NCBI GenBank assembly: GCA_037133435.1
Contig: JBAXOD010000002.1
Coordinates: forward strand, 23,545-87,544
Direction: 5' to 3'
Length of the DNA: 64,000 nt
DNA from: Candidatus Moraniibacteriota bacterium
GTDB lineage: Bacteria > Patescibacteriota > Minisyncoccia > Moranbacterales > UBA1568
The notes beneath the pieces are model-generated. The model was not told the origin of the DNA. It searched no databases and worked only from the letters and a program-made list of their open reading frames with translations. The position numbers and the translations under genes were made by a program. Below, in pieces: positions 18,987 to 54,104 of this stretch; within the stretch, counting starts at the first letter, position 1; every line of letters begins with the position of its first letter.

Positions 18987-18994
18987 AATATTTT

Positions 18995-32640: not shown

Positions 32641-32645
32641 ACTTA

Positions 32646-32800
32646 GAGCCTATCCGTCAGGGTCTCCGTCACGAGCCGTACGAGCTTCGAGCGAAAAGGC
32701 GGGTAACTTGCGGAGCCCTATCGAGATAAGGCGACAAGGGGTACGCGCGTGTACGCCGAAGATCATAGGCGCAGGAGGTATGTTCCTAACGGATAGGCTC
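32646..32800 (+). mobile_element. 155-bp MITE-like element copy 3
   Basis: gagcctatccgtcagg...cctaacggataggctc immediately after infB stop. Confidence 0.65.
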
Positions 32801-33015
32801 TTACATATAAGCATACCACGATTGCTTCTCGGTCAATTTTGCATTTTTTTCTGACACATGCTATCTGCACCGTATAATCCGTGGTAAATTGTTAGTTGTA
32901 CGCTTCTTGTTCAATGCTTTCTTCCCGCTCGTCCTTGCAAGCGGGTCCGCGCACGGAGATGTCGCGGATTATCTGTTGTAGGTTATCAGTGGTAAGTCGT
33001 TAGTCTTGCTTTCCT

Positions 33016-34817: not shown

Positions 34818-34888
34818 CGGAGTGTGGTATAGTGGTATTACGCACGATTCGGGTTCGTGTAATCCGGGTTCGATTCCCGGCACTCCGA
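34818..34888 (+). tRNA. tRNA-Pro (anticodon CGG)
   Basis: Acceptor CGGAGTG/CACTCCG, anticodon stem CACGA/TCGTG, loop TTCGGGT, T-arm CCGGG-TTCGATT-CCCGG. Confidence 0.75.
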
Positions 34889-35026
34889 CAAAATAGCACC
34901 GGAAATATACGGTTCTACGGGTTTACGAAGTATCCGGCGCATGCCGGACGATTATAGATTTCTATCCGGCTACCTCATATCCACGCGACAAGCATACCGT
35001 GGTTTCCCGGTACTCCGACGAATCAG

Positions 35027-35374
35027 GTGGTACAAAAAACGCATAAACATACCTCGCCTATGAGGATTCTCGTCAATAACCCGTCCGAAAACGCGCTCAC
35101 ACTCATGCGGAGGGCGGGATACGTCTTTCAACGCAAGGAAGGCGACGAGATGAGTTTCGTCCGAGAGTTCGCCCGGTCGGGTTTCCCCCGGTTTCACGCG
35201 TATGTCAGGACCGAAACGGTCACTATAACGGTCAATTTCCATCTCGATGCGAAACGCGAGACCTACGGTGAATCGACGCGGCACCACGGTGAATACGAAG
35301 ATGACGGTCCTCTCGCGGAAGAGGCGAAACGGCTCTTGAAACTTTTCGGCGAAAGGGCGTCCGTGGTGAAATAA
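35027..35374 (+). CDS. Hypothetical small protein between tRNA genes
   Basis: 115-aa ORF, no recognisable motif; could be spurious. Confidence 0.3.
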   Translation: MVQKTHKHTSPMRILVNNPSENALTLMRRAGYVFQRKEGDEMSFVREFARSGFPRFHAYVRTETVTITVNFHLDAKRETYGESTRHHGEYEDDGPLAEEAKRLLKLFGERASVVK

Positions 35375-35382
35375 ACGCCGAT

Positions 35383-35472
35383 GCCGAGGTGGCGCCCGCC
35401 CGCAACGCTTCGCGTAGCGATGCGGGCAGGAAACTGGTAGACGCACCAGGTTTAGGTCCTGGCGGGAGCAAG
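35383..35472 (+). pseudogene. Partial tRNA-Leu copy: acceptor+D-stem, 36-nt GC hairpin inserted in D-loop, anticodon arm, no T-arm
   Basis: gccgaggtggcg[cccgcccgcaacgcttcgcgtagcgatgcgggcagg]aaactggtagacgcaccaggtttaggtcctggcgggagcaag vs intact copy 12 nt downstream. Confidence 0.7.
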
Positions 35473-35483
35473 AAACGTATATT

Positions 35484-35570
35484 GCCGAGGTGGCGAAATT
35501 GGTAGACGCACCAGGTTTAGGTCCTGGCGGGAGCAATCCCTTGGGAGTTCGAGTCTCCCCTTCGGCACCA
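35484..35570 (+). tRNA. tRNA-Leu (anticodon TAG), CCA encoded
   Basis: Acceptor GCCGAGG, anticodon loop TTTAGGT, long variable arm, T-arm GGGAG-TTCGAGT-CTCCC, 3' ACCA. Confidence 0.85.
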
Positions 35571-35714: not shown

Positions 35715-38312
35715 CTATCGCCTATACGCCGACCTCCGATCATCAGGCTCGGAAGCGGGAATCAGGGAAGAAACGAAACCGACCGAGAACAGGAGGAATG
35801 CCGAGGTCAGGATCATCCTGACGGCGAAGACGACGAACGGGGGCACGTATTTCGACACCGCTGCGAAAAATCGGTTCGATCCGGACGAGGCGACGGTCAG
35901 ATCCTCGTTCGCTATCGCTTGAACACGTACGTCACTTACGACCTTCGTTTCCGAGGAATCGATGACGTTGACTCCCCACAGATCTCGGAGTGCCACACGT
36001 TTCTCGTTCGCTTGGACGATTTTCCCCGTAAAGTTGACGAAGTTCGCGTCACCGATCGTGCCGGGTTTCGGAAGCGTATACGCTATCTGCATATCCGCGG
36101 ACTCGTCCACTGTTTTGCCGTCCACCGTCCAGACATGCGACAGCAGATACTTCTTCGCGTATCCCGGAATGATCGACGCCTTCATCGGTATGACGGTGCC
36201 GCTCGCGAACCGTTCGAAAATTTCGTCACTATGCTCGTCGTTCTTGGTACCGTCAAGTTCCGTAAACGTGCCGACGTATCGCGGCCAGACGGCACTCGTG
36301 TCGTTCGATTCGAGCAGGATTTCCGGATCGACGACCTGATAGTTCCGCGAAAGGGACAACGCCTTTCCCGTCGCTACATTCACCGCTTCCATCCGTACGG
36401 TGTACGTTTCTCCCGGCTCGCCCGTTACCGCGAAAAACGCGGTGTTCCCGAGCCCTCCCGAAGGACAGTCGACGGACGAGACGGTCGAGGAACAGTTCAG
36501 TGCGGCACCGTTTATGGTCCATCTGAAATTCTTCCACTCGGTAGAAGTCGCGTTGCGGAGCGTGACCCCGAGAATCTCGTTTTTCATGACGCGACACGAG
36601 ATACGGTTCAGGTTCTCCTTCGCTTCGGCCGCGGTGGAAGGCGTCGGATAGTACATGTCACAGATCGGATCAATCGAGGTGTCAAGCGCCACCTGTGCCG
36701 CGCCGGATGTGGACGCGGTCGCGGTGGTCGTATACGTGGAGATCTTCTTGTCCGTATTGGTGACTTTCACGACCACGTCGCTTTTCCCTTCGGGTCGGGC
36801 GATCATGTTCTGCGCAACCGTACTGCCGCCCGACGCCGTCGCGGTATAGGTGGTCGCGGAATAATTCTCTCCCGCCCGGGTCGTGATACGCATGTAGACC
36901 GGATCGGTATTCGCGAACGTACCAAGAATCTCCGGCTTCATATCAAGCAGCACTTTGATGGAAGTCAGGCCGTTCTGCGAGATCGCCTGGGTGGTGGAAT
37001 TCGGGAGCGTGATGAGCTTTCCAGCCGTGAGTAAACCCGCCGCCTCAAGCTGGGCCGTGACGTCCTTCCAGCCGTCGACCGGATTATTGCTCAGCTCGAC
37101 GGTCCACGAATAGGTGATTTCTTCGGGACTTTTGGATGAATTGTCGACCGAAGCCGTAGCAGTGACCATGTCCCCGCCGATTCCTTCCGTCTTGTCGTTC
37201 ACCGGATTATCCGGCGTCGCGGAAACGGAGAGCTCGAGTTTCTTGGAAGAACCGGATTCAGAATCCATCGGATCGACCAGGTTCATCTCGAGACAGTCAT
37301 CGATATCCCCTTTCGTCAGGCTGGTCGTCAAAAACGTGACCGGATACCCGTGTACCGTCTCTATATAGCTCCCAGGATTCTTGATGGGGCACTTCTTGTT
37401 CTTCGAGAATCCCCACTGGACCATCATCGTCGCGTCATCATGCTTCGTCGCGACCATCGACGATCCCTCCACGAGCACCCCGACTTTGTCTCCGGTCTGA
37501 TAGTTCCACTTGAAGGTATCCCGACCCAGGCCGACCGCGTTCGCCTCGTCCTTGTTGCCGTTACCGCTCGTATCCGGATCGTGCGGGTTGGTCCCCCATG
37601 CCTTCTCGTCCGACAGTCCGAATGTTCCGTCCGTTCCGCCGACCTGACTCCCGTTCAATTCCGGGAACAAGTGGACGCATGCCGGCAACTCATAAAAATG
37701 TCCGCTGACCGGATCGTGCATGTAGCACCAATCCTTCTTCGTATCGACGACGAGCTCCCCTCCGAAATGAGCCTTGTATCCGTCGTTATCATCGTCAGTG
37801 TCGTATTTGAATCCGTTACTGTCGGCATTGTCCGTAGCGAGGATTCGCGAAGCGGCGACTTTCCAATCATTGACGGTCACCGACCCGTCGTTGTCCGAAT
37901 CACAGTAACTCGCCTGACCGGAAGAACCGCCGAGTTCGCATCCGTTCCGCTTCAGATACCAGGTGTAATAAAGCTGTGACTCGCTGGCATTGGAAAAATA
38001 GGTCGGGAACGCCTTCGCGCTGAGTTTCTGCCCGTCCTTGGGATCCGAAGGGCTGAACGCAATCGTCACCTCGGGCGCGTTGCCCTTGTTTTCGGACACG
38101 TTGAACGACTCCCCGTATCTGCGTATGACCGCGGGGTCGAGATGATACCGCTGTTCAATGGCCGACGCTATCGAATCGGCACTCGGGAAATCCAAAGCGA
38201 CCACCTTTTCGGAAATGATGAAACCGGACAAGAAAATCACGAAAGCGACGGGAATCATTCGTCTTCCCGATTGTTTCCTCATTGGATGCATAGCGTTGAA
38301 TTTATTTTTCAT
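35715..38312 (-). CDS. Large secreted/surface protein (865 aa), Thr/Ser/Asp/Asn-rich, N-terminal signal-anchor
   Basis: Start MKNKFNAMHPMRKQSGRRMIPVAFVIFLSGFII; no catalytic motifs; composition of adhesin-like proteins. Confidence 0.5.
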   Translation of the reverse strand: MKNKFNAMHPMRKQSGRRMIPVAFVIFLSGFIISEKVVALDFPSADSIASAIEQRYHLDPAVIRRYGESFNVSENKGNAPEVTIAFSPSDPKDGQKLSAKAFPTYFSNASESQLYYTWYLKRNGCELGGSSGQASYCDSDNDGSVTVNDWKVAASRILATDNADSNGFKYDTDDDNDGYKAHFGGELVVDTKKDWCYMHDPVSGHFYELPACVHLFPELNGSQVGGTDGTFGLSDEKAWGTNPHDPDTSGNGNKDEANAVGLGRDTFKWNYQTGDKVGVLVEGSSMVATKHDDATMMVQWGFSKNKKCPIKNPGSYIETVHGYPVTFLTTSLTKGDIDDCLEMNLVDPMDSESGSSKKLELSVSATPDNPVNDKTEGIGGDMVTATASVDNSSKSPEEITYSWTVELSNNPVDGWKDVTAQLEAAGLLTAGKLITLPNSTTQAISQNGLTSIKVLLDMKPEILGTFANTDPVYMRITTRAGENYSATTYTATASGGSTVAQNMIARPEGKSDVVVKVTNTDKKISTYTTTATASTSGAAQVALDTSIDPICDMYYPTPSTAAEAKENLNRISCRVMKNEILGVTLRNATSTEWKNFRWTINGAALNCSSTVSSVDCPSGGLGNTAFFAVTGEPGETYTVRMEAVNVATGKALSLSRNYQVVDPEILLESNDTSAVWPRYVGTFTELDGTKNDEHSDEIFERFASGTVIPMKASIIPGYAKKYLLSHVWTVDGKTVDESADMQIAYTLPKPGTIGDANFVNFTGKIVQANEKRVALRDLWGVNVIDSSETKVVSDVRVQAIANEDLTVASSGSNRFFAAVSKYVPPFVVFAVRMILTSAFLLFSVGFVSSLIPASEPDDRRSAYRR

Positions 38313-38356
38313 CGTCCGTATGATAATGATTCCGATGGCACGTGAAACTGAAGACG

Positions 38357-39022
38357 TCACCTGCCAAAAACGAGAAACGCCACGTCGGCAAGAAACAGCG
38401 TCAGCCAGCCGGAAAACCAGGAATAATAGATCGAGCGGGTACGATGCGCGACGAACCCGGACGCGAATGCCGCAAGAATCATCGGCGTGCTGTTCCAACC
38501 GATACCGCCGAATGCCGCCAAAAACGCGACGAAAATTCCTCCTTGCAGAAAAACCGCGAGGATGCCGGTCTTGGACAACCACGAAAGCATGATGAGGCCG
38601 CGGAAAAACACCTCAAAGAGAACGGAGACGATACCGACCAGTACCACCTCATACAAAACGAAATAGAGGAACGAATCCTGAATGAAGTTTGGCAGCGAAT
38701 ACGTCACATCGGTCCCTCCGATAGCAATCACCGAGTACCAGACGACGAGAAACGGGATGACCGCGACCACGGCGGTCAGAAAACCGTATTTTTTCACGCT
38801 CCCCTGAAAACCGATCGATGAAAGCGGCTCTTTCTCAACGAAAATCACGTAGAGGATAGGGAGACACAGGAGAAAGACGATCCCCAACACGCCGGCCTGC
38901 AGGGATTCGTCCATATTCGCGTCGGCCGGAAACAAGCGAAATGCGAGAAGCGTCGCCACGACAAACAGTCCCGTCGAGAGGAACCGCTTCATATCGAAAG
39001 CCAGAATAGGAGTCTCACTCAT
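38357..39022 (-). CDS. CPBP family intramembrane metalloprotease (CAAX protease-like)
   Basis: EVFFRGLI motif (EExxxR), multiple TM, TATAAT 12 nt upstream of chosen start MSETPIL. Confidence 0.65.
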   Translation of the reverse strand: MSETPILAFDMKRFLSTGLFVVATLLAFRLFPADANMDESLQAGVLGIVFLLCLPILYVIFVEKEPLSSIGFQGSVKKYGFLTAVVAVIPFLVVWYSVIAIGGTDVTYSLPNFIQDSFLYFVLYEVVLVGIVSVLFEVFFRGLIMLSWLSKTGILAVFLQGGIFVAFLAAFGGIGWNSTPMILAAFASGFVAHRTRSIYYSWFSGWLTLFLADVAFLVFGR

Positions 39023-39076
39023 AGCATTGCTTCCATTATAACGTTTTTTTTCAATCTTGAAAATTTCTGACAAAAT

Positions 39077-40147
39077 TTAGGCGTTCTTGATCTTGTTCTT
39101 GATGCGACTCAGAAGAAACGCGACCAGAAATGACTGAAGCGGGAAGACGGCGATGATCGGGATGCTCTCGATTACCGCCACGATCACAATGACACCGATA
39201 CGCTTTGCTAGTAATATGATTTTCTCTTTCGGCGGCAGTTTCCTCGTATTCTTGTCAAGTGCTATGATGATGATCTGTCCGATAACGAACGGTCCCGAAA
39301 TGAGTGTGGTCACCCCCGGAAGAAAGAAATCGAAAAAATCGGTCAGGTCGTCGATGCCGCCGAGCATGTAAATCAATAATTTTGATGTAAACGACAAATC
39401 TGAGGCGTTCGGATCATGCTGTGCTGTTCCACTCCCCTGCACGGTCACGTTCCCCGTCTGCCCCGATTTGCGTTGCTCTTCCCAGGACGGGTATCGGGTC
39501 GGCCGTCCTCCCATGGCTTCCGATGATTCTTCCGCATCCTCCTCATCCGATTCAGTAGTCACCGAATTCGGAACAAAACGCAGATTATTTGGAGATTCGC
39601 TATATCGGACATTCCGCTGTTTCGGCCGGGCTGTCGTCGATGCGGCTGGTTTCCCCGAAGCGGAGTTCGAGAGCTGCAAACTGTAATTCTCACGTGCTCG
39701 TTTCGTTTCGATCGCAAGCCGTGTCGCGTCCGGATTTCGATCTTGTTCGAGTTCAAGCTCATCCCTTAAAAGTGCACCAAAAGATTGTACATTCATATTC
39801 TCAGGCCGGTTCGCAGTCAATTCCGCGGGCGTTTCCGAAGTGGCGATACGGCGCTGCAGACGAGTACTCTCAGTCGCTCGTTTCTCGAGCATCGCACGCT
39901 GAACAGCGGCTGATTCCCGGTCACTGTCGATCGCGTCCGCTGTCAAAAGAGCGTCGGCCGCTACGACCGTACGGGCGATATTTTGTCGTGCTCCCGCGGC
40001 CTCATTCATCCTCCGTGCACGCAGGCCCGCAAGCATGCCCGACATACGTGCCGCATTCCGTGCGTTAGGCGAAATCACGGTCCGATCCGAAGCCGGCAAG
40101 CGGGCACGACCGTCGGGAGCTCCTGTATTTGGATTCGAAGTACTCAT
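39077..40147 (-). CDS. Hypothetical protein: ~260-aa disordered polar N-region plus C-terminal TM pair
   Basis: 356-aa ORF, C-terminal FVIGQIIIIAL and IGVIVIVAVIESIPIIAVF helices. Confidence 0.45.
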   Translation of the reverse strand: MSTSNPNTGAPDGRARLPASDRTVISPNARNAARMSGMLAGLRARRMNEAAGARQNIARTVVAADALLTADAIDSDRESAAVQRAMLEKRATESTRLQRRIATSETPAELTANRPENMNVQSFGALLRDELELEQDRNPDATRLAIETKRARENYSLQLSNSASGKPAASTTARPKQRNVRYSESPNNLRFVPNSVTTESDEEDAEESSEAMGGRPTRYPSWEEQRKSGQTGNVTVQGSGTAQHDPNASDLSFTSKLLIYMLGGIDDLTDFFDFFLPGVTTLISGPFVIGQIIIIALDKNTRKLPPKEKIILLAKRIGVIVIVAVIESIPIIAVFPLQSFLVAFLLSRIKNKIKNA

Positions 40148-40229
40148 AGGTACTGACTACGTATCACGAATCATTATGAGAGAGACCGAAAGGAGCGATA
40201 GAATCAAAAAGACGACCTCCCGTGACGGA

Positions 40230-40385
40230 AGACCGTCTTTACGCAGGTTCAGGGTTGTACCCTGAACCACGGGGTTTACAACCGATACCGAAGCTCTGAT
40301 ATGGAGAACCGACCTCCGGTAAGGTTCTGACACAGGGAGAGAAACATTTCGGAGCAGGGTACAACATTGCTCCAGTAAAGAATCG
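40230..40385 (+). repeat. Hairpin repeat family copy b: cgcaggttcagggttgtaccctgaaccac and ggagcagggtacaacattgctcc
   Basis: Matches 12071-12093 (inverted) and 49647-49673 / 49821-49843. Confidence 0.6.
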
Positions 40386-40432
40386 AGCTCTCATCCGCCA
40401 AACTGGAACGAAATATAAATTGGGAAATGGGA

Positions 40433-42769
40433 TCAATATCCCGCACCCGCGTCGAAATCGCGTTTGGCCTGTTCGATCTCAAGCAACTGCCGCGGATCCG
40501 TCGTAATGACCTGATCCTCGCTGTACGAAGCGATAACCTTGATCGCGACGTGTTTCGTCCCGGCGAAAAAGATTCCCTCTCCCACGTTCGATTCGAGCAA
40601 CAAGAACTTCTCGTGATCGGTCAGGTAAAAGAGATCCGCAATGAGATCAATCGAAGCCGGCGACTGTTTGAGGAGAAGCTGGATAGAGGAGTTTGTGACG
40701 ATCGGTTTACCGTAGCGTGACGCCATGAAATCGCCCACGTCCTGGGTGATGGTCGTCAGTCCCGCGAAGTACTTGCGGCACCGTTTCGCGATACCGAACA
40801 TGAATGCGGCGGCATCCTCGTTTTGCATCATGATCCACGCCTCGTCCACGACGATCAGCCGCTGTTTCATTTCCACGCGGATCTCGTTCCAGATGTACTG
40901 CAAGATGACGTACATCGCGATCGGCCGAAGCTCGCTCTCGAGGTCCCGGATATTGAAGACGATCATCTGCCGATTCAACGACACGTTTGTCTGGTGATTG
41001 AGGAACCCGCTGAAGACGCCCTCGGTATACTGTTCGAGCCGCGCCGCGAGCGATTCGGCACCTTCGACATTGCGAAGCACGGCATAGAGATCCGTCATGG
41101 TCGGGAACGATGCCGCGTCGAGAGAGCGGAAGTCCGACGATTCGGTGATGTCGCGGATGGCATATGTCTCGCGGATCGCACGGTCAAGGACGGAGTCCTC
41201 TTCCGGCGTCACCGCGCCGAGCATGAGGTGTAGCAATCCGATCAGGTTCGCGACATGACTGCGGAACACGCCCTGTTCATCTTCCGTCGCGGCGATTTTC
41301 GGAAGGTCGAACGGGTTCAGATGCGCGTCGGAGGCGAGCGAAATGTCGAGGAACGTCCCGCCGACCGTGTCGCACAGGTGCTTGTATTCCTGTTCCGGAT
41401 CGATGATGACGACGCTCGTCCCGAACATCATGGAACGCAGTATCTCGAGTTTGATGGTATAGCTTTTTCCGGCGCCGGATTTCGCGAAGACGACCATGTT
41501 GGCGTTTTCCATGCGGAACCGGTCGAACAGGACGAGCGAATTGTTGTGCCGGTTGATCCCGTAGAGTATCCCCTCGTTCGAGGACAAATCGGAAGACACG
41601 AACGGAAACGTGGTGGACAAGGGCGAGGTGTTCAGATTGTTCGCGATATCGAGCAGGTCCATGCCCAAAGGCCTCGTGGAGATGAATCCCTGATCCATCC
41701 GCAGCACGGCCTGCTTCGTGAAGACGAGCTGCGCCTCGAGTATGGACTCGATGTTTCTGGAAATGTCGTTGAGTGCCTTCTCATCGGCCGCATAGACGGT
41801 CATGTAGAGTCCGAATCGGAAGAATTTCTCCGTCCCCTGCTGCAGACGGTCGCGAAGATCCTGGATGTTCTCGAGTGCGGCTTCGAGCATAGGATCGCGG
41901 ACCTTGCCGCCTTCGGCCTCGATGCCGATCTGCGAACGGACGTGCGTCTCGGACGCACGCAACTCACGCATGATCTCACGCGTGTCGACCGGATGAATAA
42001 GGAAGCCGACGTCCATCGGGGCGTCGATATTCACGATCGGGGAAAACCAGTTCGTCCCGAGGTATTTCGGATACGCGATGACGAAATGCGTCCGCGCGAA
42101 CACGCTGCCGACATGGAAAAAGCTCGGTGACATGCGTATCGCCGGCGGTGCGATGAGATCCTTGAGACTCGCGACGCCCTTGCGATAGAGCTCTTCCGAT
42201 TCGGTGCTGCCATGTGAAGAAAATACGGAGGTCAAAAATCCGCCCTTGCCGCCGCCGGCCGATTTCTGCTTGGAGGAAGGCCGTTCGACCTCCGCCGAAT
42301 ACGGAATGACCTCCTCCTCGAAACCGGACGGGCGTGAGTAAGGTGCGGCTGATTCCGAACCAGGTGCGGGAATACGGGACGATTCCGCTTCGACAGCGGA
42401 AGGAAGAGGCTCTACCGTAACCGGCGGCGTATCAAAAGAACGCGCCGGCGCGGGTTCGGATGATGCCGGTTGCGACGACCACGAGGCATACGCGGGCGCC
42501 GCCGATTCCGCCACCGGGATCGGTGCGGGTACCGGAGTCGGTTGCACTGCGGGAGTGGCCGCGACCGGGGGCGTCGACACGACCGGAGCGTCGAAATACT
42601 TCGGCTCCGGCGCGGAAGCGGGAGTCGGGATCGGTGCTGGCGCGGGTGCGGCCGGAACGGGTGCCGGTCCCGAAGGAGATGCTGTACCGCCGCCGGCATC
42701 ACTTAATCCGAGCAGTTCCATGATGAGCGCTTTGCGCTGTTCCGGATCCAATTGTGCTGGTGTAGGCAT
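40433..42769 (-). CDS. VirB4/TrbE/CagE-family T4SS ATPase with ~180-aa Pro/Ala-rich N-terminal extension
   Basis: Walker A VVFAKSGAGKSYT, Walker B LIVVDEAW, CagE_TrbE_VirB N-domain block FHVGSVFARTHFVIAYPKYLGTNWFSPIVNIDAPMDVGFLIHP. Confidence 0.8.
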   Translation of the reverse strand: MPTPAQLDPEQRKALIMELLGLSDAGGGTASPSGPAPVPAAPAPAPIPTPASAPEPKYFDAPVVSTPPVAATPAVQPTPVPAPIPVAESAAPAYASWSSQPASSEPAPARSFDTPPVTVEPLPSAVEAESSRIPAPGSESAAPYSRPSGFEEEVIPYSAEVERPSSKQKSAGGGKGGFLTSVFSSHGSTESEELYRKGVASLKDLIAPPAIRMSPSFFHVGSVFARTHFVIAYPKYLGTNWFSPIVNIDAPMDVGFLIHPVDTREIMRELRASETHVRSQIGIEAEGGKVRDPMLEAALENIQDLRDRLQQGTEKFFRFGLYMTVYAADEKALNDISRNIESILEAQLVFTKQAVLRMDQGFISTRPLGMDLLDIANNLNTSPLSTTFPFVSSDLSSNEGILYGINRHNNSLVLFDRFRMENANMVVFAKSGAGKSYTIKLEILRSMMFGTSVVIIDPEQEYKHLCDTVGGTFLDISLASDAHLNPFDLPKIAATEDEQGVFRSHVANLIGLLHLMLGAVTPEEDSVLDRAIRETYAIRDITESSDFRSLDAASFPTMTDLYAVLRNVEGAESLAARLEQYTEGVFSGFLNHQTNVSLNRQMIVFNIRDLESELRPIAMYVILQYIWNEIRVEMKQRLIVVDEAWIMMQNEDAAAFMFGIAKRCRKYFAGLTTITQDVGDFMASRYGKPIVTNSSIQLLLKQSPASIDLIADLFYLTDHEKFLLLESNVGEGIFFAGTKHVAIKVIASYSEDQVITTDPRQLLEIEQAKRDFDAGAGY

Positions 42770-42773
42770 ATGT

Positions 42774-43460
42774 TTATCTTCCGGTCAGTTCCACCGACTC
42801 GATATTCTTGACCACCGACGACGTGAACAACGAAGGGTTGTACGAATTATACAAAAGCTCGATGACCTCTTCGGTACCCAAAAGCGTGGTCCGGACGCCG
42901 GTACCCATGAGTGCCGACGCGACCAGATCGGCGCGCTGGAACAGCTGGTTCTTGTACGTCTCGAACACCTCTCCGCCGATGAACGTCTGCTTGACCGGAT
43001 TGAATATGCCGCCCATCTTCGTGAAAAAACCGCCCTCTTTCGTCTCGGAAGGGGCGAACGGTACCACGACAAAGAACGATTTCGACATGATATTCGAGAC
43101 ATCGGTCAGACTCTTGATGAAATTCGCGTATTCCGAAATCTGGAACCGCAAAAGGTCATTCTCCTGGGTCTTTTCCTGTTGCTTGAGCTTCTCGAGATAC
43201 GGCTCGATGCGGAAACGGCGCGAGTGCACGATAATCTGGAGCGGAAAATCAAGCGAGTTGAGGAAATTCTGATACTGTATGATGATCGCATCCTGCTCGT
43301 CGGTCGATTTGAGGTCGAAGTTGATGGAAGACGCGAGCAGCACCGCCCGGATGGAGCCGTTGCGCAGTATCATGACGCCGTCGCGGACTTCCTCGACGTC
43401 CACGTACTTTTGTGTGCTCGCGGCGTCCGATTCCTTTTTGTTGTCGGTGATGCGTTCCAT
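42774..43460 (-). CDS. Hypothetical T4SS-associated protein; N-region resembles the extreme N-terminus of Gram-positive VirB4 (PrgJ/TcpF-type)
   Basis: DGVMILRNGSIRAVLLASSINFDLKSTDEQDAIIIQYQNFLNSLDFPLQIIV; 4-nt gap to VirB4 start. Confidence 0.4.
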   Translation of the reverse strand: MERITDNKKESDAASTQKYVDVEEVRDGVMILRNGSIRAVLLASSINFDLKSTDEQDAIIIQYQNFLNSLDFPLQIIVHSRRFRIEPYLEKLKQQEKTQENDLLRFQISEYANFIKSLTDVSNIMSKSFFVVVPFAPSETKEGGFFTKMGGIFNPVKQTFIGGEVFETYKNQLFQRADLVASALMGTGVRTTLLGTEEVIELLYNSYNPSLFTSSVVKNIESVELTGR

Positions 43461-43490
43461 AGTTTTCCGTGGTTGTGTGTTTTTCCTCCG

Positions 43491-43889
43491 CTATTTCCGG
43501 TCCACCGCCTCCGCTATGCGGCGTATCTCCGCTTCCGTGATCCTCCGCTCGGGCGCGACCGATCCGGTATCGATCTTTTTCGGAAGAGTCTTCTGTACTG
43601 GCTTCCCGAGCGGCCTTCGCCACATCATGACCTTCGGATTGAAGAGAAAAAAGAATCCGTAGATCACGAAAAGGAGGAGTGGCTGACCGTTCGGCCTGTA
43701 AAACGCGAGGAGACAGAAAATGATGATGATCGGTATGGAAACCAGGTAGATCGCGATGCCGTCACCGATGATGAACTTGGCGACCAGGATGGTCGTCCCC
43801 ATCCCGATCATCCACAAAAGTTGCTTCCCGGTGAGCGGTCCGGCGATCTTGTCTTCCACGTCGACAAATTGCGGTACGTTGAATATCAT
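43491..43889 (-). CDS. PrgI-family (VirB3-like) small membrane protein
   Basis: MIFNVPQFVDVEDKIAGPLTGKQLLWMIG N-terminus typical of PrgI; two TM helices. Confidence 0.6.
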   Translation of the reverse strand: MIFNVPQFVDVEDKIAGPLTGKQLLWMIGMGTTILVAKFIIGDGIAIYLVSIPIIIIFCLLAFYRPNGQPLLLFVIYGFFFLFNPKVMMWRRPLGKPVQKTLPKKIDTGSVAPERRITEAEIRRIAEAVDRK

Positions 43890-43946
43890 AGCACGGATTC
43901 GGAGATTATCACATTCAAAAACTTCGACTCACTCAAGGATACCATA

Positions 43947-45812
43947 TCAGTTCCGAAGATCCACGACGCGACCCGGGTCGTCGTCTTCCGAAGCCACGAA
44001 CCCGTCTTCCGTATCGACGGGACGGATATAGTACGGGCCCGCTTTCGGTGCCTGATTCGGACGCGGGACATCCTGCGGCATCTGCCGATCCGATACGGGG
44101 GTCCGGACGATTTCGGTGTGGTACGGCTCGGTCGCTCGACCCTGCGCGAATGACGTCGCGGACGGCAACGCCACGGGCCGGGTCGTTTCGATGTCGTCAC
44201 GGATGGAATTTCGTTTCGAATAATCGATTTCGCCAGGCAACGAATGACCGGAAGAAAACGACATGCCGCCACTCCTTTCGGACACATGCGGGGAATGCGT
44301 GATCGGTTCCACGACATCATCATGCGCGCGCGTACCGATCGGAGCAGGAGCGGATGTGTCGATATCCTTGGATGCGACATCGCGGATACCGTCATTTTTC
44401 CAAAATGCCACCTTCGACGTATCCGGTTGGAAGGACGGGATCGCACCGGACGCGCGGAGCGGTGCGGGCTGCACCGGAGCGGGACCGATCGGCAGATCGC
44501 GCGGAGGGGCGGCAGTCGGTCGAGGTGCAAGAGCCGGTGCTACCGGTCGTGCGGGTGACACATATGGCCGTGAGACCGGCTCCTGAACAGGTTCCACATA
44601 TCGCGGAGCGGGAGCCTGTGAAGGCGGCGCGACCGGTCGTGCAGGCGGTACATACGGAGCCGGTGCCGGTGCTTGAATGGGTTCGGCAGAGTGTAACGCC
44701 GATGCAAAATGAGGTGCCTCGGTCTGAAATTCTTGATTCGATATATGAACCAATTCTTCTTTGGGTATCACATATTGAGATGCGGAAGCCGGAGCTGACG
44801 AGGGTAGCGAAACCGGTCGTACCGGTGGTACATACGGAGCCGGAGCTTGTGGCACTTGATACTGCGCGGGAGTTGGTTCCACATATCGCGACGCGGGAGC
44901 TGGCGCTGCAGTATGTTGTGCAGGCGTCGGCGGGACCGGTCGTGCCGGAGGCACGTACGGACGCGGTTCCGGTCTTTGTGCGACTGCTGCCGGTCGCGCT
45001 GGAAGCGATGCCGTACCGCGCCCGGACTCTTGGAAGGTCGGGAAGACGATCTCCATGGTTTCTGTATCGACGTCGAGCGCGACATTGTCCTCCACGGACC
45101 GGACAATCAGGTTGATCCTCTCCCGTTCTTCCGAAGAGAGTTTCTTGCCGTTCTCCGAATCGAACAGGAATTTGGCGCGAAGCATCGGATCGTGATATCC
45201 CACGCCGAGATCGTTGCGATACGCGCGGATCCAATTACCCAAACTCGGCCGGACCGTTTCCAACTGACCGTGGATATGGATACGCTCCGTCGAGAGTATC
45301 TGTTCGCTGAGTTTCGGATACTGGCTCACCGCCTGTAAAAGCGGGAGTGATACGGTCGCCCGCAGTGCCGCCTCGGACAGGTCTTCATCCTCGTCCTCAT
45401 CCTTTTCCAGAAGCCACGGTTCGAGTTCGAACACTTTTTTTCGCGCTTCCTCGAGTCCGATGACCGGTGCGGATTTTTTGGTCGCCCATTCGGCCCCGAG
45501 TGCGGCAGCATCGGTGAAGTACTCCGGGAAGCGCGAAAATATCCGCTGATTCACCTCGTATGCGATGCCGTATGCCACGCTCCGCTCGATGCCCGCCTCC
45601 CATCCGACTGTCGCCGGATAATCCGCAAGTGATATCTCGCGCACGAATATTCCCCCAAGCGGCCCGGTCACGGCCGGAATAGCCTCTTCCGGGAGTCCGT
45701 AGAGCATGCAGACCTCCTCGCAGAGGATACGCGGATCGTCCAGCATGAAAAAGTCATGCACAGGCGCCGGCAGCTGCTTCAGTTTTTTGAAAAAATCCTC
45801 CTGCATAATCAC
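43947..45812 (-). CDS. Protein with globular N-domain and Pro-rich repeat C-region (PAPYVPPARPV repeats)
   Basis: 621 aa; at least six YVxPxRPV-type repeats between aa ~290-500. Confidence 0.5.
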   Translation of the reverse strand: MIMQEDFFKKLKQLPAPVHDFFMLDDPRILCEEVCMLYGLPEEAIPAVTGPLGGIFVREISLADYPATVGWEAGIERSVAYGIAYEVNQRIFSRFPEYFTDAAALGAEWATKKSAPVIGLEEARKKVFELEPWLLEKDEDEDEDLSEAALRATVSLPLLQAVSQYPKLSEQILSTERIHIHGQLETVRPSLGNWIRAYRNDLGVGYHDPMLRAKFLFDSENGKKLSSEERERINLIVRSVEDNVALDVDTETMEIVFPTFQESGRGTASLPARPAAVAQRPEPRPYVPPARPVPPTPAQHTAAPAPASRYVEPTPAQYQVPQAPAPYVPPVRPVSLPSSAPASASQYVIPKEELVHISNQEFQTEAPHFASALHSAEPIQAPAPAPYVPPARPVAPPSQAPAPRYVEPVQEPVSRPYVSPARPVAPALAPRPTAAPPRDLPIGPAPVQPAPLRASGAIPSFQPDTSKVAFWKNDGIRDVASKDIDTSAPAPIGTRAHDDVVEPITHSPHVSERSGGMSFSSGHSLPGEIDYSKRNSIRDDIETTRPVALPSATSFAQGRATEPYHTEIVRTPVSDRQMPQDVPRPNQAPKAGPYYIRPVDTEDGFVASEDDDPGRVVDLRN

Positions 45813-45926
45813 ATTTGCGTTCCAATCTTTTCAACCTTTTTAGAAATAATTCGAACCATCTCCCCTTATGGGACCCTGCCCGCCGGAATTTTTTTCTCCG
45901 CCCAAGTTTCCACCTGTATTCCCATC

Positions 45927-48404
45927 TCAATTATTCTCTGGCACTCTATCTACCAAACCGAACCGATGATCTCTTCCCATTGACTTATGTGCCGATTCCG
46001 CTTCTTTTTTTAGGGCGACTGCAGCAAGGTTAGTTTTATCTACTTCAGCAGCCGCGAGCTCTATGATCTTATCAGTCGATTTATTTATTTTCGCTCCATC
46101 CTCAGCTAGTTTCGCAAGATTACTCACAGTTTTACTGGCTCCTCCATTCGCTAAAAGCATCGGCATAATGGCAGCCAAATTGTCCGGATTCTTACTGACT
46201 GCGTCGAGCGTCAAAGCATCGGCTTTCTTGTACACGGAATCTTGTACAGCTATATTGGTTTTGACACTATTATGGAATTCACCTTCTCGAGAGAAGTATG
46301 CCTGGTGTGCCGCAGTACGTTGCTTCTCGAGAATTTTCTTTTCTTGTGGCGAACCAGCGGCATCTATTTTCGCCTTAATATCCGGATCAAATTGCGCAAC
46401 AGCAGTATCAAGATTCTCGGAAATCTTCACCGACTTTTCCCCATCCTTACTCAGTTCGTCGAGGACAGTCTGATTGATCTTATTCGCAGTAAGACCGGCC
46501 GCAAGCACCTCTGAGGTCAATGCGTTCGCAGTCTGACTTTCGAACTTAACCCTGCCACTCTTGAGCACCTTTGTCATTTCTTTGACATCAGTACCGTACG
46601 CCGCCTTTAGGTTCACCTCGGCAACATTCGCCCTCGTCTCCTTCACGACAGCATTGTCCATACCGCCGCGATCCTTGAAGTGATCCTCGACTAACTTCAT
46701 ATCGGCATTCTCCATCTTGCCCTGCAGTTCGGGACGTTTCCGCATCTCATCCAATACCGCCGTCATATGAAGGCCGTCTTTTCTGCTCTTCGCTTCGGCA
46801 TGCTGCTTCTCAAGCTCTGAAATCGACGTATTGGAATTGATAGCCCTTCGTTTCGCCTCTTCCTTTACGAGTTCCTGTTCACGCGTAAGCGCGCCCGTAG
46901 CGGCCATTTTCCTGCCCGCCTCGGTTCTGAATCTTGACTGCGCCGCGTTCCTCTCGGAAACCAAGTTGCGATGCTGGCCGAACCGCGTCCCGACATTGTT
47001 CCTACTGAATCGGTCATCCTTGAGTTTCTTCCTCTCGCTCCGATAGGCATCCACGCGCTTCTTGCCAGCTGTGATACCGGTCACGAATTTCATCGCTCCC
47101 ATCGCATATTTCTTCACCGCATCCGCTCCATAAATACCCATCATGTTTCCGACACTCATCGCCGCCCATATCATGATAACAGGGATGATTGTTATCACCA
47201 TCGAGGTAATAAGGGATGTATTGTCCGCTGATGTCCTGATTCCGGAAGTTATCGTCGTAATTGTCGTAGCAGCCGAACCATTCTTAAAGTTCTTCAGAAA
47301 CGTAACAGCTACAAGGATCATGAGCATTGCGGCTGGACCAAAAAACGCATATTTCATGAAATAGTCCCACCATTGTTTAGAAAATCTCTCCAATCCGGGG
47401 ATGGCGGACGCCGCAAATCCAATCGGCGAAAATATCACCAAAAGCAAAAGGGCCACCAAACGGACCAGAAACAATGCGGCGAGCATCAATAGTGACGCAG
47501 CCAATAGAAAAGTGAACACGATTGCCTGAATAAGAAACCCGGTCGTTTTCCCCTCCCAAAGAGATGATTTTGCCGTCGATGGCAAGAGAAATTTCGAATA
47601 CCCGCTATTCCCCATCAGTTGTTCGAAGATATTAGTAGCACTCTGATTGCTTGGCCCCAAAATACTGTCGATGAAAAAGTACATCGGCACATTCGTCGCG
47701 TCCACGATAAATCGGGACACCGGGAAACTGAAGTTCACTAAGAGAGCCATCAAGACGAGCTGTAAGAGCCATTTTCTATAATTGTATGCCTGAATCTGAA
47801 ATATCGTCCCGAATGCAACGAACAAAAGCGTCAGTATGAAGAACAGGTTGAAAAAATCCCGAACCATTCCCCACATCGTATAGGTGGCCGACATATTGAA
47901 CAGTTCCAGCCATACTTTCGCATCCACCGCCCACGCGAAAATTACCGCGGCGAGACCATAGAGCAGGCTGATAAAGGCAAGGACCGCATATAAAATGATG
48001 TTCAAAGCGCCCAGAAAAATATTTGCTGACAAATTCCCAACCGCTGAAGCAGCCTCTGCCAACGGTTTCACGGAGAGTGTTTCCGCCGCGTTTATAACAG
48101 GATCCGTAGAAAGAGCCGCAGCAAACAAACCAAGCGGCGCAGTATCGTACGTATAGTTCGCGTAATTCTTGCTCTTACAATACGCCCGGCAAGCCTCACC
48201 GCTCGCTGTCGGTGCCGCCGGAGGACTGATTGTTTCTTGAACTGGATGAAGTACCGCGCCACTGCGGCAAAAGCATGATTCTCCGGCTGCATGTGCTGTT
48301 TTTGCAAACGAGAAAAATATCGCGCCGGAAAACACAAAACTCACCAAAAAAATGGCTGAGGATACCGAAAAAGAAATGTTCTTGATTTTTTTCACAACAG
48401 GCAA
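45927..48404 (-). CDS. VirB6/TrbL-like polytopic membrane protein with long charged coiled-coil C-terminal domain
   Basis: Signal peptide, ~7 TM in residues 120-430, then Lys/Glu-rich 350-aa tail; architecture only. Confidence 0.45.
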   Translation of the reverse strand: MPVVKKIKNISFSVSSAIFLVSFVFSGAIFFSFAKTAHAAGESCFCRSGAVLHPVQETISPPAAPTASGEACRAYCKSKNYANYTYDTAPLGLFAAALSTDPVINAAETLSVKPLAEAASAVGNLSANIFLGALNIILYAVLAFISLLYGLAAVIFAWAVDAKVWLELFNMSATYTMWGMVRDFFNLFFILTLLFVAFGTIFQIQAYNYRKWLLQLVLMALLVNFSFPVSRFIVDATNVPMYFFIDSILGPSNQSATNIFEQLMGNSGYSKFLLPSTAKSSLWEGKTTGFLIQAIVFTFLLAASLLMLAALFLVRLVALLLLVIFSPIGFAASAIPGLERFSKQWWDYFMKYAFFGPAAMLMILVAVTFLKNFKNGSAATTITTITSGIRTSADNTSLITSMVITIIPVIMIWAAMSVGNMMGIYGADAVKKYAMGAMKFVTGITAGKKRVDAYRSERKKLKDDRFSRNNVGTRFGQHRNLVSERNAAQSRFRTEAGRKMAATGALTREQELVKEEAKRRAINSNTSISELEKQHAEAKSRKDGLHMTAVLDEMRKRPELQGKMENADMKLVEDHFKDRGGMDNAVVKETRANVAEVNLKAAYGTDVKEMTKVLKSGRVKFESQTANALTSEVLAAGLTANKINQTVLDELSKDGEKSVKISENLDTAVAQFDPDIKAKIDAAGSPQEKKILEKQRTAAHQAYFSREGEFHNSVKTNIAVQDSVYKKADALTLDAVSKNPDNLAAIMPMLLANGGASKTVSNLAKLAEDGAKINKSTDKIIELAAAEVDKTNLAAVALKKEAESAHKSMGRDHRFGLVDRVPENN

Positions 48405-48701
48405 ATCCTGAAGTCGAAATATTTGAAACCGGGCGCAACAATACGCGACATGATTATACTATAATTTTTGGAAAGAGAGAAACAGCAATAAGCAAGAGAA
48501 CATCTCACAAGTACGCCACAAGAGGACTGTCAATATTGAAACAAAAATTGAACCAGACTCTAAATTGTAGATATTGGAAATCTTTCCAACAAAACTAAAA
48601 TTATTGACCATGATAAGCAAAGCAACTTAAAAATAATGCGAATAAACAAAAAAAGAGAGGCCAATTGGTCTCTCTTGGAATTGATACCGTTGTCACAATA
48701 C

Positions 48702-49277
48702 CTATTGAGGCCGCGCATATGCCAAAATAGTATTATCAAAATAGTATTTCCGTTCCCACTCTTCCTCGACCGGACCATAATCCGTCCCATTTTCACTAAA
48801 TCGAGAAGAACTTCCATCACCGTAAAAAACAATTATCTCTGCTTTTAATTCGACTGGTATCACCAACTGCTCAATAGTATTATTTGTGATTCGGGCAACG
48901 TACCCGTATTTCACTTTCTCTACGCTCGCCCCAGTTGCCTTATGAAGTATATCGCCGATACTTGGATCAGGATTGACGTTATCGTCAGAAAGATATGAGA
49001 CAAGTAATGTGTTTCCGAACAGTTTGTGCGACAACTCAATATATTTCACCCCTCCGGTCAATTTGTTGTTCTTCCCTAAATGAAGCCTTTGTCCAGGAGG
49101 CGCACCACCAGATGAAACCAAAGTCTCTCCCCCCTGGCTCATTCCTGCCGAAACGATTGGCTGCGTGCCGTCATTTGCAGCACTGTTTCCATTGTTTTTA
49201 TTACTACTGCAAGCGCAGAGACCGACTATGCCCAAAAAAAAGGCAACTTGTACTAAATATACTAAAGATTTCTTCAT
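48702..49277 (-). CDS. Putative lipoprotein
   Basis: MKKSLVYLVQVAFFLGIVGLCAC signal/lipobox-like, 191 aa. Confidence 0.5.
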   Translation of the reverse strand: MKKSLVYLVQVAFFLGIVGLCACSSNKNNGNSAANDGTQPIVSAGMSQGGETLVSSGGAPPGQRLHLGKNNKLTGGVKYIELSHKLFGNTLLVSYLSDDNVNPDPSIGDILHKATGASVEKVKYGYVARITNNTIEQLVIPVELKAEIIVFYGDGSSSRFSENGTDYGPVEEEWERKYYFDNTILAYARPQ

Positions 49278-49479
49278 TTTACCCTCCTAAAAGGTTGTCG
49301 GGCCGAAAATGAACCCAGTTAAAAGATAACTGCATTATTTTTTTATAGATTTTCTTCCTGCTTCTGTTGTCAAAGGCGGAAGCACCTCCCGCCGGACTTT
49401 TGTCCATTGACCAAGAACAAATTCTCGGCATCAGACACCTCCCTTATACCATGTATTTTCAGACGAGTCAAGAGTCACG

Positions 49480-49860
49480 AAAATAAATTCTCACTTTTCC
49501 CTTATAAAAGCCACAAACGAAACATTTTCCCGATCAAATTTTCGGCCCGTAAGGTCATTTCGCGGGCTCAGGACTGCGCCCAGCACCGTACGGTACTGAG
49601 TCGTACCTCGTACCAGACGGTACGGGGTTGTACTCTAAACCTTTTCGCAGGTTCAGGGTTATACCCTGAACCACATCGTTTACGGCCGATGATGTGATTT
49701 CGACTTGTCAAACTATACCCTGCCGAGGCTAAGTCTTGGCAAACCAGCCTCCGCTCTAGCTTCGGCTTGGCAAGCCAGACTCCGCTCTAGCTTCGGCCTG
49801 GAAGGGAGAAAGAATGTTTCGAAGCAGGGTGCAACCCTGCTCCTGCAATAAAATTACATC
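49480..49860 (+). repeat. Hairpin repeat family copy c plus internal tandem 30-bp repeat (ggcaaaccagcctccgctctagcttcggc x2)
   Basis: tcccttataaaagccacaaa, cgcaggttcagggttataccctgaaccac, gaagcagggtgcaaccctgctcc. Confidence 0.6.
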
Positions 49861-49937
49861 TGATACGCGATAGCGTAGCAAATGTAACTTTTCGAAAATA
49901 TCTCAAATTTGATAATACTGCTACAGGTTGCCAATCC

Positions 49938-50150
49938 ATCCCCGTTCCCCTTTCAAAATTCGAAATTCAAAATTGCCCTGACCTCGTCCCCAACCCGTTA
50001 ACTCGTTAACCCGTGAACCGAATAACATCCCCTCCCGTTCCCCTTTCAAAATTCGAAATTCAAAATTCAAAATTGCTTTGACCTCGTTCCCAACACGTTA
50101 ACTCGTTAACCCGTGAACCGAATAACATCCCCTCCCGTTCCCGTTGTAAG
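49938..50150 (+). repeat. Two and a fraction tandem ~91-100-bp direct repeats containing ttcaaaattcgaaattcaaaattgc and cgttaactcgttaacccgtgaacc
   Basis: Units 49938-50028 and 50029-50128; third copy of the AT-rich core at 51346-51410 on the other side of the recombinase gene. Confidence 0.7.
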
Positions 50151-50193
50151 TTGTTAGGAGTAAGTTGTGAGTGGTAAGTTGTCAGTCTGTCCC

Positions 50194-51177: not shown

Positions 51178-51545
51178 TTGTAAGGTGCGAGAAGTCGGTT
51201 CCCCATCCCCGCTCCCCGCTCCCTTCCTGCTCCACTGCCTGAGGGGAGCTCCCGTGGTTTTGCACGGGTGAGGGGTGGGAGAAGTTGCCCATCCTTATCC
51301 CCGCTCCTCACTTCTCACTCCTCATTCCTGTCCCCACTCCCCGCTCCCGTTCCCGTCCCCATTTCAAAATTCGAAATTCAAAATTCAAAATTGCTGAGAC
51401 CCTGTTCCTTATTATCTGCTCAGTGTTAACTGAAGTTATCCCTTATTCAAGGGTAAAGCTACCTATTTCACCATCAATTTTCGTTGACATTGCCCCCCTG
51501 CGGAAGCTATACTCGATTCCATATAACACCTTAGGGCGCCGGCGT

Positions 51546-52823: not shown

Positions 52824-52824
52824 C

Positions 52825-53766: not shown

Positions 53767-54104
53767 CAATCATTATTTTCAAAAGTTGCGAGTGAGTGCC
53801 CCGTACTTTCTTCCTGTTCCCCTGCCAGAGGAGGATTATCTGACAACAAGGAAAATGATCCGTTGAGTCTTCGAAACTGAAGGTTGGGAGAAATTCCCCG
53901 CATCCTTGACTTGCCACGGCCTCCGCGGCTTCGCAAAGACCGAAGGTATCACGCTCCCGTTCCCTGCTATCTGCTCAATGTTATCTGCTCCCTGATCCCT
54001 GACTCATGTTCCCTGTCTCATGTTATCTGTTCTCTGTTGTCAGTAGTTAGTTGTAAGTTGTCAGTGGTTAGTTGTCAGTTATAGGTTATCAGTCGTCAAT
54101 TCTT

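Follow-up and report, generated by a model that had tools for sequence, protein, structure and literature searches.

What does a type IV secretion system (T4SS) do when neither a relaxase nor a coupling protein is encoded beside it? Bacteria from the candidate phyla radiation (CPR), or Patescibacteria, account for a large share of bacterial diversity and depend on hosts. In one of them, an ultra-small Moranbacteria cell, the question is raised by a gene cluster at positions 35715-49277 of a 64,000-nt stretch of DNA (the window), which comes from a Candidatus Moraniibacteriota bacterium (assembly GCA_037133435.1, contig JBAXOD010000002.1, positions 23,545-87,544 of the forward strand; GTDB lineage Bacteria; Patescibacteriota; Minisyncoccia; Moranbacterales; UBA1568). 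The cluster is packed with nine minus-strand open reading frames (ORFs), G1 to G9, all in the same direction, where a first-pass annotation had counted eleven genes. That annotation had recognized a minimal T4SS-like machine of the Gram-positive/CPR type, lacking both relaxase and coupling protein, a description borne out by the presence of a VirB4 of the CD1110/MPF_FATA type, TrsD, PrgI and a VirB6 fold. The interpretation favored here, at a probability of about 0.72, is that the locus encodes a housekeeping, chromosomally fixed T4SS of Candidatus Moranbacteria (Paceibacteria, CPR), which belongs to a Patescibacteria-specific lineage derived from monoderm MPF_FATA conjugation machines and serves contact-dependent exchange with a host.

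Families were assigned by Pfam and NCBIfam hidden Markov model (HMM) searches, and AlphaFold2 (AF2) models were made for G2 and G9. The comparison set, which holds one genome per species, consists of 80 related loci, nearly all from Moranbacteria, and gene order in these relatives was read from tblastn searches with the window proteins together with gene calls.

The ATPase core and its chromosomal setting

The assignment of the locus depends first on its ATPase. G6 scores 358.3 bits against NF045971, the CD1110 VirB4 equivalog, for which the cutoff is 325 and the aligned residues are 190-743, and it matches PF19044 at E=1.4e-28. The first-pass annotation had called this protein a VirB4 ATPase and had named reassignment to FtsK or HerA as the outcome that would overturn the call. 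Such a reassignment is rejected, as the HerA and CedD models reach just 15-16 bits on G6 and none of the FtsK-type models scored on it in the HMM search. The residues of Walker A (G432, G434, K435 and S436) and Walker B (D642 and E643) are invariant among 17 sequences; judged by these motifs, VirB4 is shown to be catalytically intact. A total of 7,991 VirB4 homologs scored at E<=1e-20, with identities of 60-96% among the matches listed. Every named match among the 120 best is from Candidatus Moranbacteria/Moraniibacteriota, which, as a similarity ranking rather than a phylogeny, agrees with membership in a Patescibacteria clade.

Residues 1-190 of G6 form a P/A-rich N-terminal extension. The corresponding extension is 20-45 aa long in most relatives and 150-340 aa long, rich in Pro, Ala, Ser and Thr, in the sub-clade of the window, to which the long P/A-rich form is restricted. 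An envelope-spanning role had been proposed for it at first pass and is unsupported, since the extension sits on the N-terminus of a cytoplasmic ATPase.

The two genes preceding VirB4 complete the core. G4 matches PF12666 at E=7.9e-8 and 33.2 bits, above the gathering score of 27, in agreement with its earlier description as PrgI-like, and PrgI is found in 77 of 81 loci. G5, in which a likeness to the extreme N-terminus of Gram-positive VirB4 had been noticed, does align to positions 3-118 of the CD1110 VirB4 model (NCBIfam, E=2.5e-6); it also matches the TrsD/TraD model (E=2.1e-5), and its orthologs carry the TraC-like domain PF26593. TrsD adjoins VirB4 in 80 of 81 loci. TrsD and VirB4 are translationally coupled: their spacer measures 4 nt here, and most relatives have either 2-12 nt or an overlap of 4 nt. 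In two loci, L014 (63-2354) and L060 (5-2467), both of which lose the 5' end of TrsD at the contig start, TrsD and VirB4 form one continuous ORF; about 77 other loci were examined and have them as separate genes. The view of TrsD as a detached N-terminal domain of VirB4 fits the continuous frame in these two loci.

The second line of evidence is gene order. In about 70 of the 80 species-level genomes the order xer(-), LysM-CHAP(+), G2, G3, PrgI, TrsD, VirB4, G7, G8, G9, CCA-adding enzyme(-), IF2(-) is kept, more than is expected by chance, while VirB4 identity across species-level genomes is 61-80%. The first-pass annotation had proposed this comparison of presence and absence across related genomes. 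Because gene order, together with the housekeeping flanks, is kept in so many genomes, the locus is a vertically inherited chromosomal system and not an integrated conjugative element (ICE). The remainder of the window is likewise of a housekeeping nature and includes genes for RNase Y, trigger factor, iPGM, IF2, the CCA enzyme, UvrD and NAD salvage.

The third line concerns the genes of conjugation proper. The first-pass annotation saw no VirD4, relaxase, VirB11 or VirB9/10, and none of the sizeable ORFs of the 64-kb window has a family match to a relaxase, a type IV coupling protein (T4CP), VirB11 or VirB9/10. No oriT was found in the window either, and the only trace of a T4CP there is the P-loop of VirB4 itself, which reaches E=0.1 against CD1115. 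The same annotation had reasoned that a relaxase or VirD4 nearby would make the locus an ordinary ICE; neither was found in the window, and the tyrosine recombinase next to the locus (50194-51177) is Xer-like, with 246 bits to both XerC and XerD, and syntenic in 53 related loci.

A pilin array lies apart from the cluster. The first-pass annotation had placed it 18 kb away, and the five T4SS pilin genes, which encode proteins of 412, 151, 156, 136 and 90 aa, are indeed 18.1 kb from the locus. In a sister lineage (loci L076-L081), an orthologous module of a solute-binding protein (SBP) and pilins is contiguous with PrgI-TrsD-VirB4-G7, and the distant array of the window is therefore tied functionally to the locus.

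Directly upstream of the pilins is a gene (17580-19451) for an orphan SBP homolog (SBP_bac_1/8) of 623 aa with a 200-aa N-terminal extension and with no ABC permease nearby. Its orthologs in L076-L081 stand in the same place and share 38-43% identity. This orphan SBP may bind a ligand in association with the T4SS or the pilus. Three plus-strand ORFs beside the array (10424-11785, 12305-13234 and 13263-14492) have no Pfam or NCBIfam match and could encode further pilus or T4SS-associated proteins.

Table 1. Features of the T4SS locus and of associated genes in the window.
Feature	Positions	Strand	Basis of assignment
G1, small lipoprotein, 191 aa	48702-49277	-	signal peptide and GLCAC lipobox
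G2, extended VirB6, 825 aa	45927-48404	-	AF2 model and Foldseek
G3, Pro-rich protein, 621 aa	43947-45812	-	sequence and alignment of 46 orthologs
G4, PrgI/VirB3-like membrane protein, 132 aa	43491-43889	-	PF12666
G5, TrsD-like, VirB4 N-terminal domain as its own gene, 228 aa	42774-43460	-	NCBIfam CD1110 VirB4 and TrsD/TraD
G6, VirB4 ATPase core, 778 aa	40433-42769	-	NF045971, PF19044
Hairpins between VirB4 and G7	40208-40286	-	terminator scan, fold, repeat family D14
G7, membrane protein, 356 aa	39077-40147	-	sequence, positional orthologs
G8, divergent CPBP/Rce1-like polytopic membrane protein, 238 aa	38357-39073	-	NCBIfam MrtA, PF02517 in orthologs
G9, surface protein, 865 aa	35715-38312	-	AF2 model and Foldseek
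LysM-CHAP peptidoglycan hydrolase	51285-52823	+	two LysM domains and CHAP
Array of five VirB2-like T4SS pilin genes	14569-17583	-	PF18895 in all five

Membrane platform, Pro-rich protein and wall hydrolase

The polytopic protein G2, considered VirB6-like at first pass, escapes detection by sequence families. No Pfam match to PF04610 (TrbL/VirB6) was obtained for G2 or its 46 orthologs; a few homologs come close, among them P0178, which at E=3.5e-5 and 24.1 bits falls just under the cutoff of 25.9. A profile of the G2 orthologs had no match in the PDB, and the lone signal in hhalign comparisons with the pCF10 Prg/Pcf and Tn916 Orf13-17 proteins was a 31% probability of G2 to Tn916 Orf15. The identification of G2 comes from its structure model. 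The AF2 model, built with 87 sequences, has a mean predicted local distance difference test score (pLDDT) of 83, with values above 90 in the transmembrane (TM) domain and the C-terminal solenoid, and the top Foldseek matches are chains of TrwI at a probability of 0.98-1.0. On this model, G2 is a VirB6-fold protein, for which the term extended VirB6 is used here. It consists of an N-terminal anchor, a Cys-containing outside loop, a polytopic VirB6-fold domain at about residues 116-421 and a C-terminal alpha-solenoid of about 330 aa. The last TM segment is succeeded by a stretch rich in K and R, which suggests that the solenoid is cytoplasmic. Sequence identity to R388 TrwI (PDB 7o3v/8rt9) and to Legionella DotA (9ngy) is 8-9%, and the N-terminal anchor, the Cys-containing outside loop and the 330-aa solenoid are present in G2 but not in TrwI. 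G2 is conserved in 59 loci.

The Pro-rich protein G3, found in 69 loci, had been expected at first pass to span the cell wall or envelope. It has neither a signal peptide nor a TM segment; because it lacks both, a wall-spanning role is unlikely and the earlier expectation does not hold. G3 is probably cytoplasmic, as far as its sequence features indicate. A conserved central domain at about residues 155-260 is accompanied by variable Pro-rich linkers and by two short conserved motifs at the C-terminus, LSFSSxHxLPxE and NPFxIRPV. Residues R188, W194, Y198, R199 and H207 are among those that are invariant in the alignment of orthologs. Profile searches and hhalign found no relatives of G3 in the PDB, in Pfam or among the pCF10 and Tn916 proteins.

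The first gene of the cluster, G1, was rightly called a lipoprotein from its signal peptide and lipobox. As a conserved component of the machine it is rejected, because tblastn detected no homolog in any of the 80 related loci; G1 is lineage-specific and fast-evolving. In most relatives the gap between the LysM-CHAP and VirB6-like genes is 100-175 nt, with no gene at the position of G1. The closest relative has a different lipoprotein, of 159 aa, whose likeness to G1 is limited to a WERKY[YF] motif and the signal region.

A component that had not appeared in the first-pass parts list is the LysM-CHAP hydrolase, which belongs to the locus in relatives: in 53-54 related loci its gene lies directly upstream of the VirB6-like gene and is co-directional with it. 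This position matches the published association of VirB1 homologs with virB4 in Paceibacteria (PMC12102498), and the hydrolase is a probable VirB1-type wall-opening enzyme of the system, as gene order and domain content suggest. Compared with about 50 related Moranbacteria loci, the window has xer and the LysM-CHAP gene jointly inverted, and the hydrolase gene reads into a NUDIX gene (52777-53715) and not into the T4SS operon. The LysM-CHAP/NUDIX junction is tight and is found in an independent assembly as well. The other inversion junction lies in tandem repeats, at which two independent assemblies end.

The rearranged segment is bordered by intergenic repeats that also occupy other intergenic sites. 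The repeat families are located at 49933-50187, 51351-51432, 53956-54108, 19901-19981 and 32961-33019. They include a 100-nt unit, of which two tandem copies occupy 49939-50138 and part of a third lies at 51351-51408, and tracts with a period of 7/14 nt (GTTGTNAGT...). Rfam searches of the repeat-rich leader at 49250-50250 gave chance-level matches only.

The genes downstream of VirB4

The three genes that follow VirB4 are separated from it by hairpins. A terminator scan found a 15-bp terminator-like stem with a T-run after VirB4, at 40208-40240. It is preceded by a hairpin element, GGTTCAGGGTACAACCCTGAACC, which lies between VirB4 and G7 and is present also upstream of G1. The repeat family D14 comprises a 50-nt element at 40237-40286 that matches 49641-49690 and holds a perfect hairpin (GGTTCAGGGTnnnACCCTGAACC). 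The fold of the VirB4-G7 intergenic hairpin has z=-2.5. The hairpins after VirB4 suggest that the locus probably consists of two transcription units, G1-G6 and G7-G9, and the D14 element, which stands at the head of both putative units, may be regulatory or similar to repetitive extragenic palindromic (REP) sequences.

G7 has a long, low-complexity, divergent N-terminus, followed by a conserved C-terminal domain of two to three TM segments with the motif E-x-I-P/G-x-x-N-F-L-P-x-E/Q-T/S. No Pfam or NCBIfam match was found for it. A G7-type gene with this motif stands directly after VirB4 in at least 46 of 75 loci, and in the distant L079 group a G7-type gene follows VirB4 while VirB6, G3, G8 and G9 are not adjacent. 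G7 is best regarded as a conserved, unnamed partner of VirB4, a view that draws on its position and motif.

G8, which is found in 70 loci, had been described at first pass as a CPBP protease. On the CPBP part of this description, 28 of 46 orthologs match PF02517 (best E=2.8e-7), but the protein of the window has no Pfam match and scores weakly against NCBIfam MrtA (CPBP), at E=2e-4 and 21.7 bits against a cutoff of 200. The protease part fares less well. The catalytic motifs of CPBP/Rce1 proteins are EExxxR, FxxxH and HxxxN. The G8 alignment, with the register set by eye, keeps E142, E154, R158 and an invariant D230. Motif 1 reads Y-E-V-F-F-R, in which the first Glu is missing and one Glu is retained; the His of motif 2 is not conserved and is Tyr in most orthologs, and motif 3 is reduced to the invariant Asp230. 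G8 would thus be a CPBP-fold protein with a non-canonical site, possibly an inactive one. A profile of its orthologs had no match in the PDB.

G9, the surface protein of the first-pass annotation, can be described more closely as an array of immunoglobulin (Ig)-like beta-sandwiches with a conserved C-terminal anchor. A signal peptide is followed by a series of beta-sandwich domains of Ig-like/macroglobulin-like type, in which many Cys and Trp residues are conserved. The AF2 model has a mean pLDDT of 83.6, and its Foldseek matches, with E-values down to 5e-8, include the macroglobulin (MG) domains of complement C3, Bap, the Ig domains of NCAM and an archaeal S-layer protein. No Pfam domain was found in 120 G9 homologs, and the ortholog profile had no match in the PDB. 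The conserved C-terminus (35715-35870) comprises FFAAVSxYVPP, a TM helix ending in GFVFSLIPE and an Arg-rich tail. This tripartite end resembles a sorting signal, and the gene neighbors G8, whose best NCBIfam match is the archaeomyxosortase MrtA, yet the canonical catalytic histidines are absent from G8.

G7, G8 and G9 probably add a lineage-specific module for the envelope and for host contact, as their conserved adjacency suggests. The alternative that survives best is that these three genes (35715-40147) form an unrelated envelope operon that merely lies beside the T4SS. The strong terminator-like hairpin between VirB4 and G7 is in keeping with such an operon, as is the location of G8 and G9 away from VirB4 in the L079 group. 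Furthermore, G7, G8 and G9 resemble no T4SS protein of pCF10 or Tn916; in particular, hhalign of the G8 and G9 profiles against all pCF10 Prg/Pcf and Tn916 Orf13-17 proteins gave no match. However, G7-type genes directly follow VirB4 even in the L079 group, among loci long enough to show it, 68-70 have G8 and G9 next in order, and the distribution of the G9 family is as narrow as that of the locus type, with 499 representatives among 1.84 billion proteins. A separate operon is therefore considered unlikely, though it is the alternative to be taken most seriously.

A more speculative proposal is that Moranbacteria rebuilt the envelope- and substrate-facing parts of the machine from components not seen in any described system. 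The solenoid and G3 would then replace the coupling protein as a docking platform, G7-G8-G9 would replace VirB8, VirB5 and the adhesin at the site of host contact, and G8 would recognize or anchor the C-terminus of G9. We regard this proposal as doubtful.

Function and relation to known systems

A housekeeping T4SS for host exchange would operate as follows, a course that we infer from established T4SS architecture (the R388 structure and the Gram-positive Prg/Tra systems) and from work on Saccharibacteria. In the operon, the genes for PrgI/VirB3 and for the extended VirB6-fold protein come before those for TrsD and VirB4, and VirB4 hexamers would dock via TrsD and PrgI onto the VirB6 membrane platform. 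The CHAP hydrolase would open the peptidoglycan wall, and VirB4 would drive the building of a pilus or tube of VirB2 type out of the pilins of the array. The machine would then mediate contact-dependent exchange with a host cell, through protein export or the acquisition of host macromolecules, as opposed to plasmid or ICE conjugation. In Southlakia epibionticum, the T4SS genes and the pilin array are essential for epibiotic growth (PMC10633639), and tubular structures, possibly T4SS pili, have been described at a parasite-host interface (bioRxiv 10.64898/2026.06.21.733656). In our analysis, protein export or the acquisition of host material would rank above DNA uptake and above adhesion alone.

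Several points weigh against this interpretation. To our knowledge, no member of the Moranbacteria has been cultured and no substrate is known; the proposed function is carried over by homology from a distant class, Saccharimonadia. No VirB8-like protein was found when the profiles of G2, G3, G8 and G9 were compared with PrgL, PrgD and Orf13. The membership of G7-G9 is based on conserved adjacency, with a terminator-like hairpin between them and VirB4. In this genome an inversion has turned the LysM-CHAP gene away from the operon, and its product resembles the division hydrolases PcsB and DipM as much as VirB1. Finally, a VirD4-like T4CP, which could still couple DNA or protein substrates, is likely to be encoded elsewhere in the genome, because 2,918 Patescibacteria genomes have one (PMC12102498).

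One rival function is that of a machine for pilus assembly and adhesion only, in which a VirB2-type pilus and the Ig-like adhesin attach the cell to its host and no substrate is translocated. In known systems, pilus biogenesis is powered by VirB4 as its ATPase (PMC12102498), and sister lineages have a conserved pilin array that adjoins PrgI-TrsD-VirB4 without a break. The adhesin-like character of G9 and the lack of a T4CP match nearby point in the same direction. Attachment in CPR bacteria, however, is attributed to type IV pili, and the large cytoplasmic solenoid of the VirB6 protein, together with the cytoplasmic G3, suggests the docking of substrates or partners. A purely adhesive machine is rated improbable.

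A second rival is a DNA-uptake machine similar to Ced of the Sulfolobales or ComB of Helicobacter, which would import DNA for nucleotides or recombination. CPR bacteria lack nucleotide synthesis, T4SS loci of the class ABY1 co-localize with comF, recG and radA, and the window lacks a detectable relaxase and T4CP. VirB4 does match CedB, but weakly (E=2.2e-14), and the 53 bits are far under the 358 bits obtained with CD1110. The window contains no competence genes. In Southlakia, where uptake is attributed to type IV pili and ComEC, cells from which comEC was deleted lost competence but remained viable, and the T4SS was still essential (PMC12857230). DNA uptake as the function of the locus is rated improbable.

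An ICE or its remnant, with its ends marked by the tyrosine recombinase and by tRNA-Pro/tRNA-Leu and its relaxase and T4CP lost or located elsewhere, is rejected as hardly tenable, since the recombinase at 50194-51177, the tRNA-Pro, tRNA-Leu and partial tRNA-Leu copy at 34818-35570, the drop in GC to 0.44-0.48 at 46-50 kb and the conjugative CD1110 type of VirB4 are outweighed by the XerC/XerD scores and synteny of that recombinase, by the failure of a search to detect att-type repeats linking the tRNA genes with the side of the recombinase or a direct repeat of a tRNA 3' end on the other side, by the lack of any relaxase, T4CP, excisionase or replication gene found in the window, and by the collinearity of the whole block, including the CCA-enzyme and IF2 genes, in about 70 species-level genomes, which effectively refutes it.

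The closest known system is the T4SS of the Patescibacteria clade represented by SEML1_0006-0019 of Southlakia epibionticum ML1, which is likewise chromosomal and relaxase-less, with no T4CP near virB4 (Wang et al. 2023, PMC10633639; Quinonero-Coronel et al. 2025, PMC12102498). Both systems have an MPF_FATA VirB4, TrsD, PrgI/VirB3, VirB6, a divergent VirB2-like pilin array and wall hydrolases nearby. The locus described here comes from a different class, Paceibacteria/Moranbacterales, and has its pilins 18 kb away and not inside the cluster. In the window it lies between xer and the CCA-enzyme/IF2 genes and not next to dnaA/dnaN. A survey of 2,407 Patescibacteria assemblies reported the same composition, with TrsD abundant, pilin arrays present and a nearby T4CP rare, and found relaxases in only 103 genomes (PMC12102498).

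Compared with the Gram-positive MPF_FATA systems (pCF10 Prg/Pcf, pGO1/pSK41 Trs and CTn2 of the CD1110 family), the VirB4 of the window passes the CD1110 equivalog cutoff. The locus has PrgI in common with them and, like them, lacks VirB7, VirB9 and VirB10; its TrsD is a gene of its own, as it is in pGO1, and its hydrolase is of the CHAP type found in PrgK/TrsG. It differs in that no relaxase or PcfC/VirD4 was found in the window, in that no VirB8 of the PrgL/TraM type was found, in the possession of pilins, which those systems lack, and in its location outside a mobile element. The Ced system is likewise driven by a VirB4-type ATPase, CedB, and operates without a relaxase; besides the weakness of the CedB match, no equivalents of CedA, CedA1 or CedA2 were seen here. 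The Ptl system of Bordetella and the VirB system of Brucella are also driven by VirB4 without a coupling protein, but no operon for a Sec-exported toxin of the ptx type was seen here.

The core claim is not new, as relaxase-less T4SSs of Patescibacteria were described in 2023-2025 (PMC10633639, PMC12102498) and have been reviewed (PMC12857230). Not found in the main text of these three papers were the solenoid by which VirB6 is extended, G3, proteins of the G7 family, the pair of CPBP-like G8 and Ig-like G9, and the SBP-pilin linkage; all but the last are also accessory parts that set the locus apart from the Southlakia system. Their membership in the machine would follow from synteny alone. 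None of the papers searched pairs Moranbacteria with the phrase 'type IV secretion'.

Among candidates for the conduit of host dependence in the CPR, the T4SS ranks first, and it is essential in the one lineage tested. In the uncultured Moranbacteria the same machine is retained, and its place on the chromosome is fixed. For this order, a cleaner parts list is now available, which includes the extended VirB6 verified by a structure model, the split VirB4, the LysM-CHAP hydrolase, the membrane protein after VirB4 and the CPBP-like/Ig-like pair. These parts are targets for structural and genetic work on how such a machine operates with no relaxase and with no coupling protein close by.

Minor observations were made elsewhere in the window. 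Partial or duplicated tRNA pieces lie beside intact tRNAs at 35386-35471, 19982-20058, 3845-4133 and 2341-2767. They include a partial tRNA-Leu upstream of tRNA-Leu, a copy of the 5' part of tRNA-Ser and repeats around tRNA-Pro and tRNA-Gly, and they are tandem duplications rather than att sites. A 160-nt repeat with 89-99% identity is present at 22573-22736 and 32640-32801, where it closely follows the 3' ends of a PMT_2 glycosyltransferase-like gene and of the gene for IF2, both on the plus strand; it may represent a small RNA or a conserved 3' element. A 395-aa ORF at 61116-62303 is weakly similar to the rve integrase core and IS481 transposases (E about 1e-2 to 2e-4) and may represent a degraded or divergent transposase.

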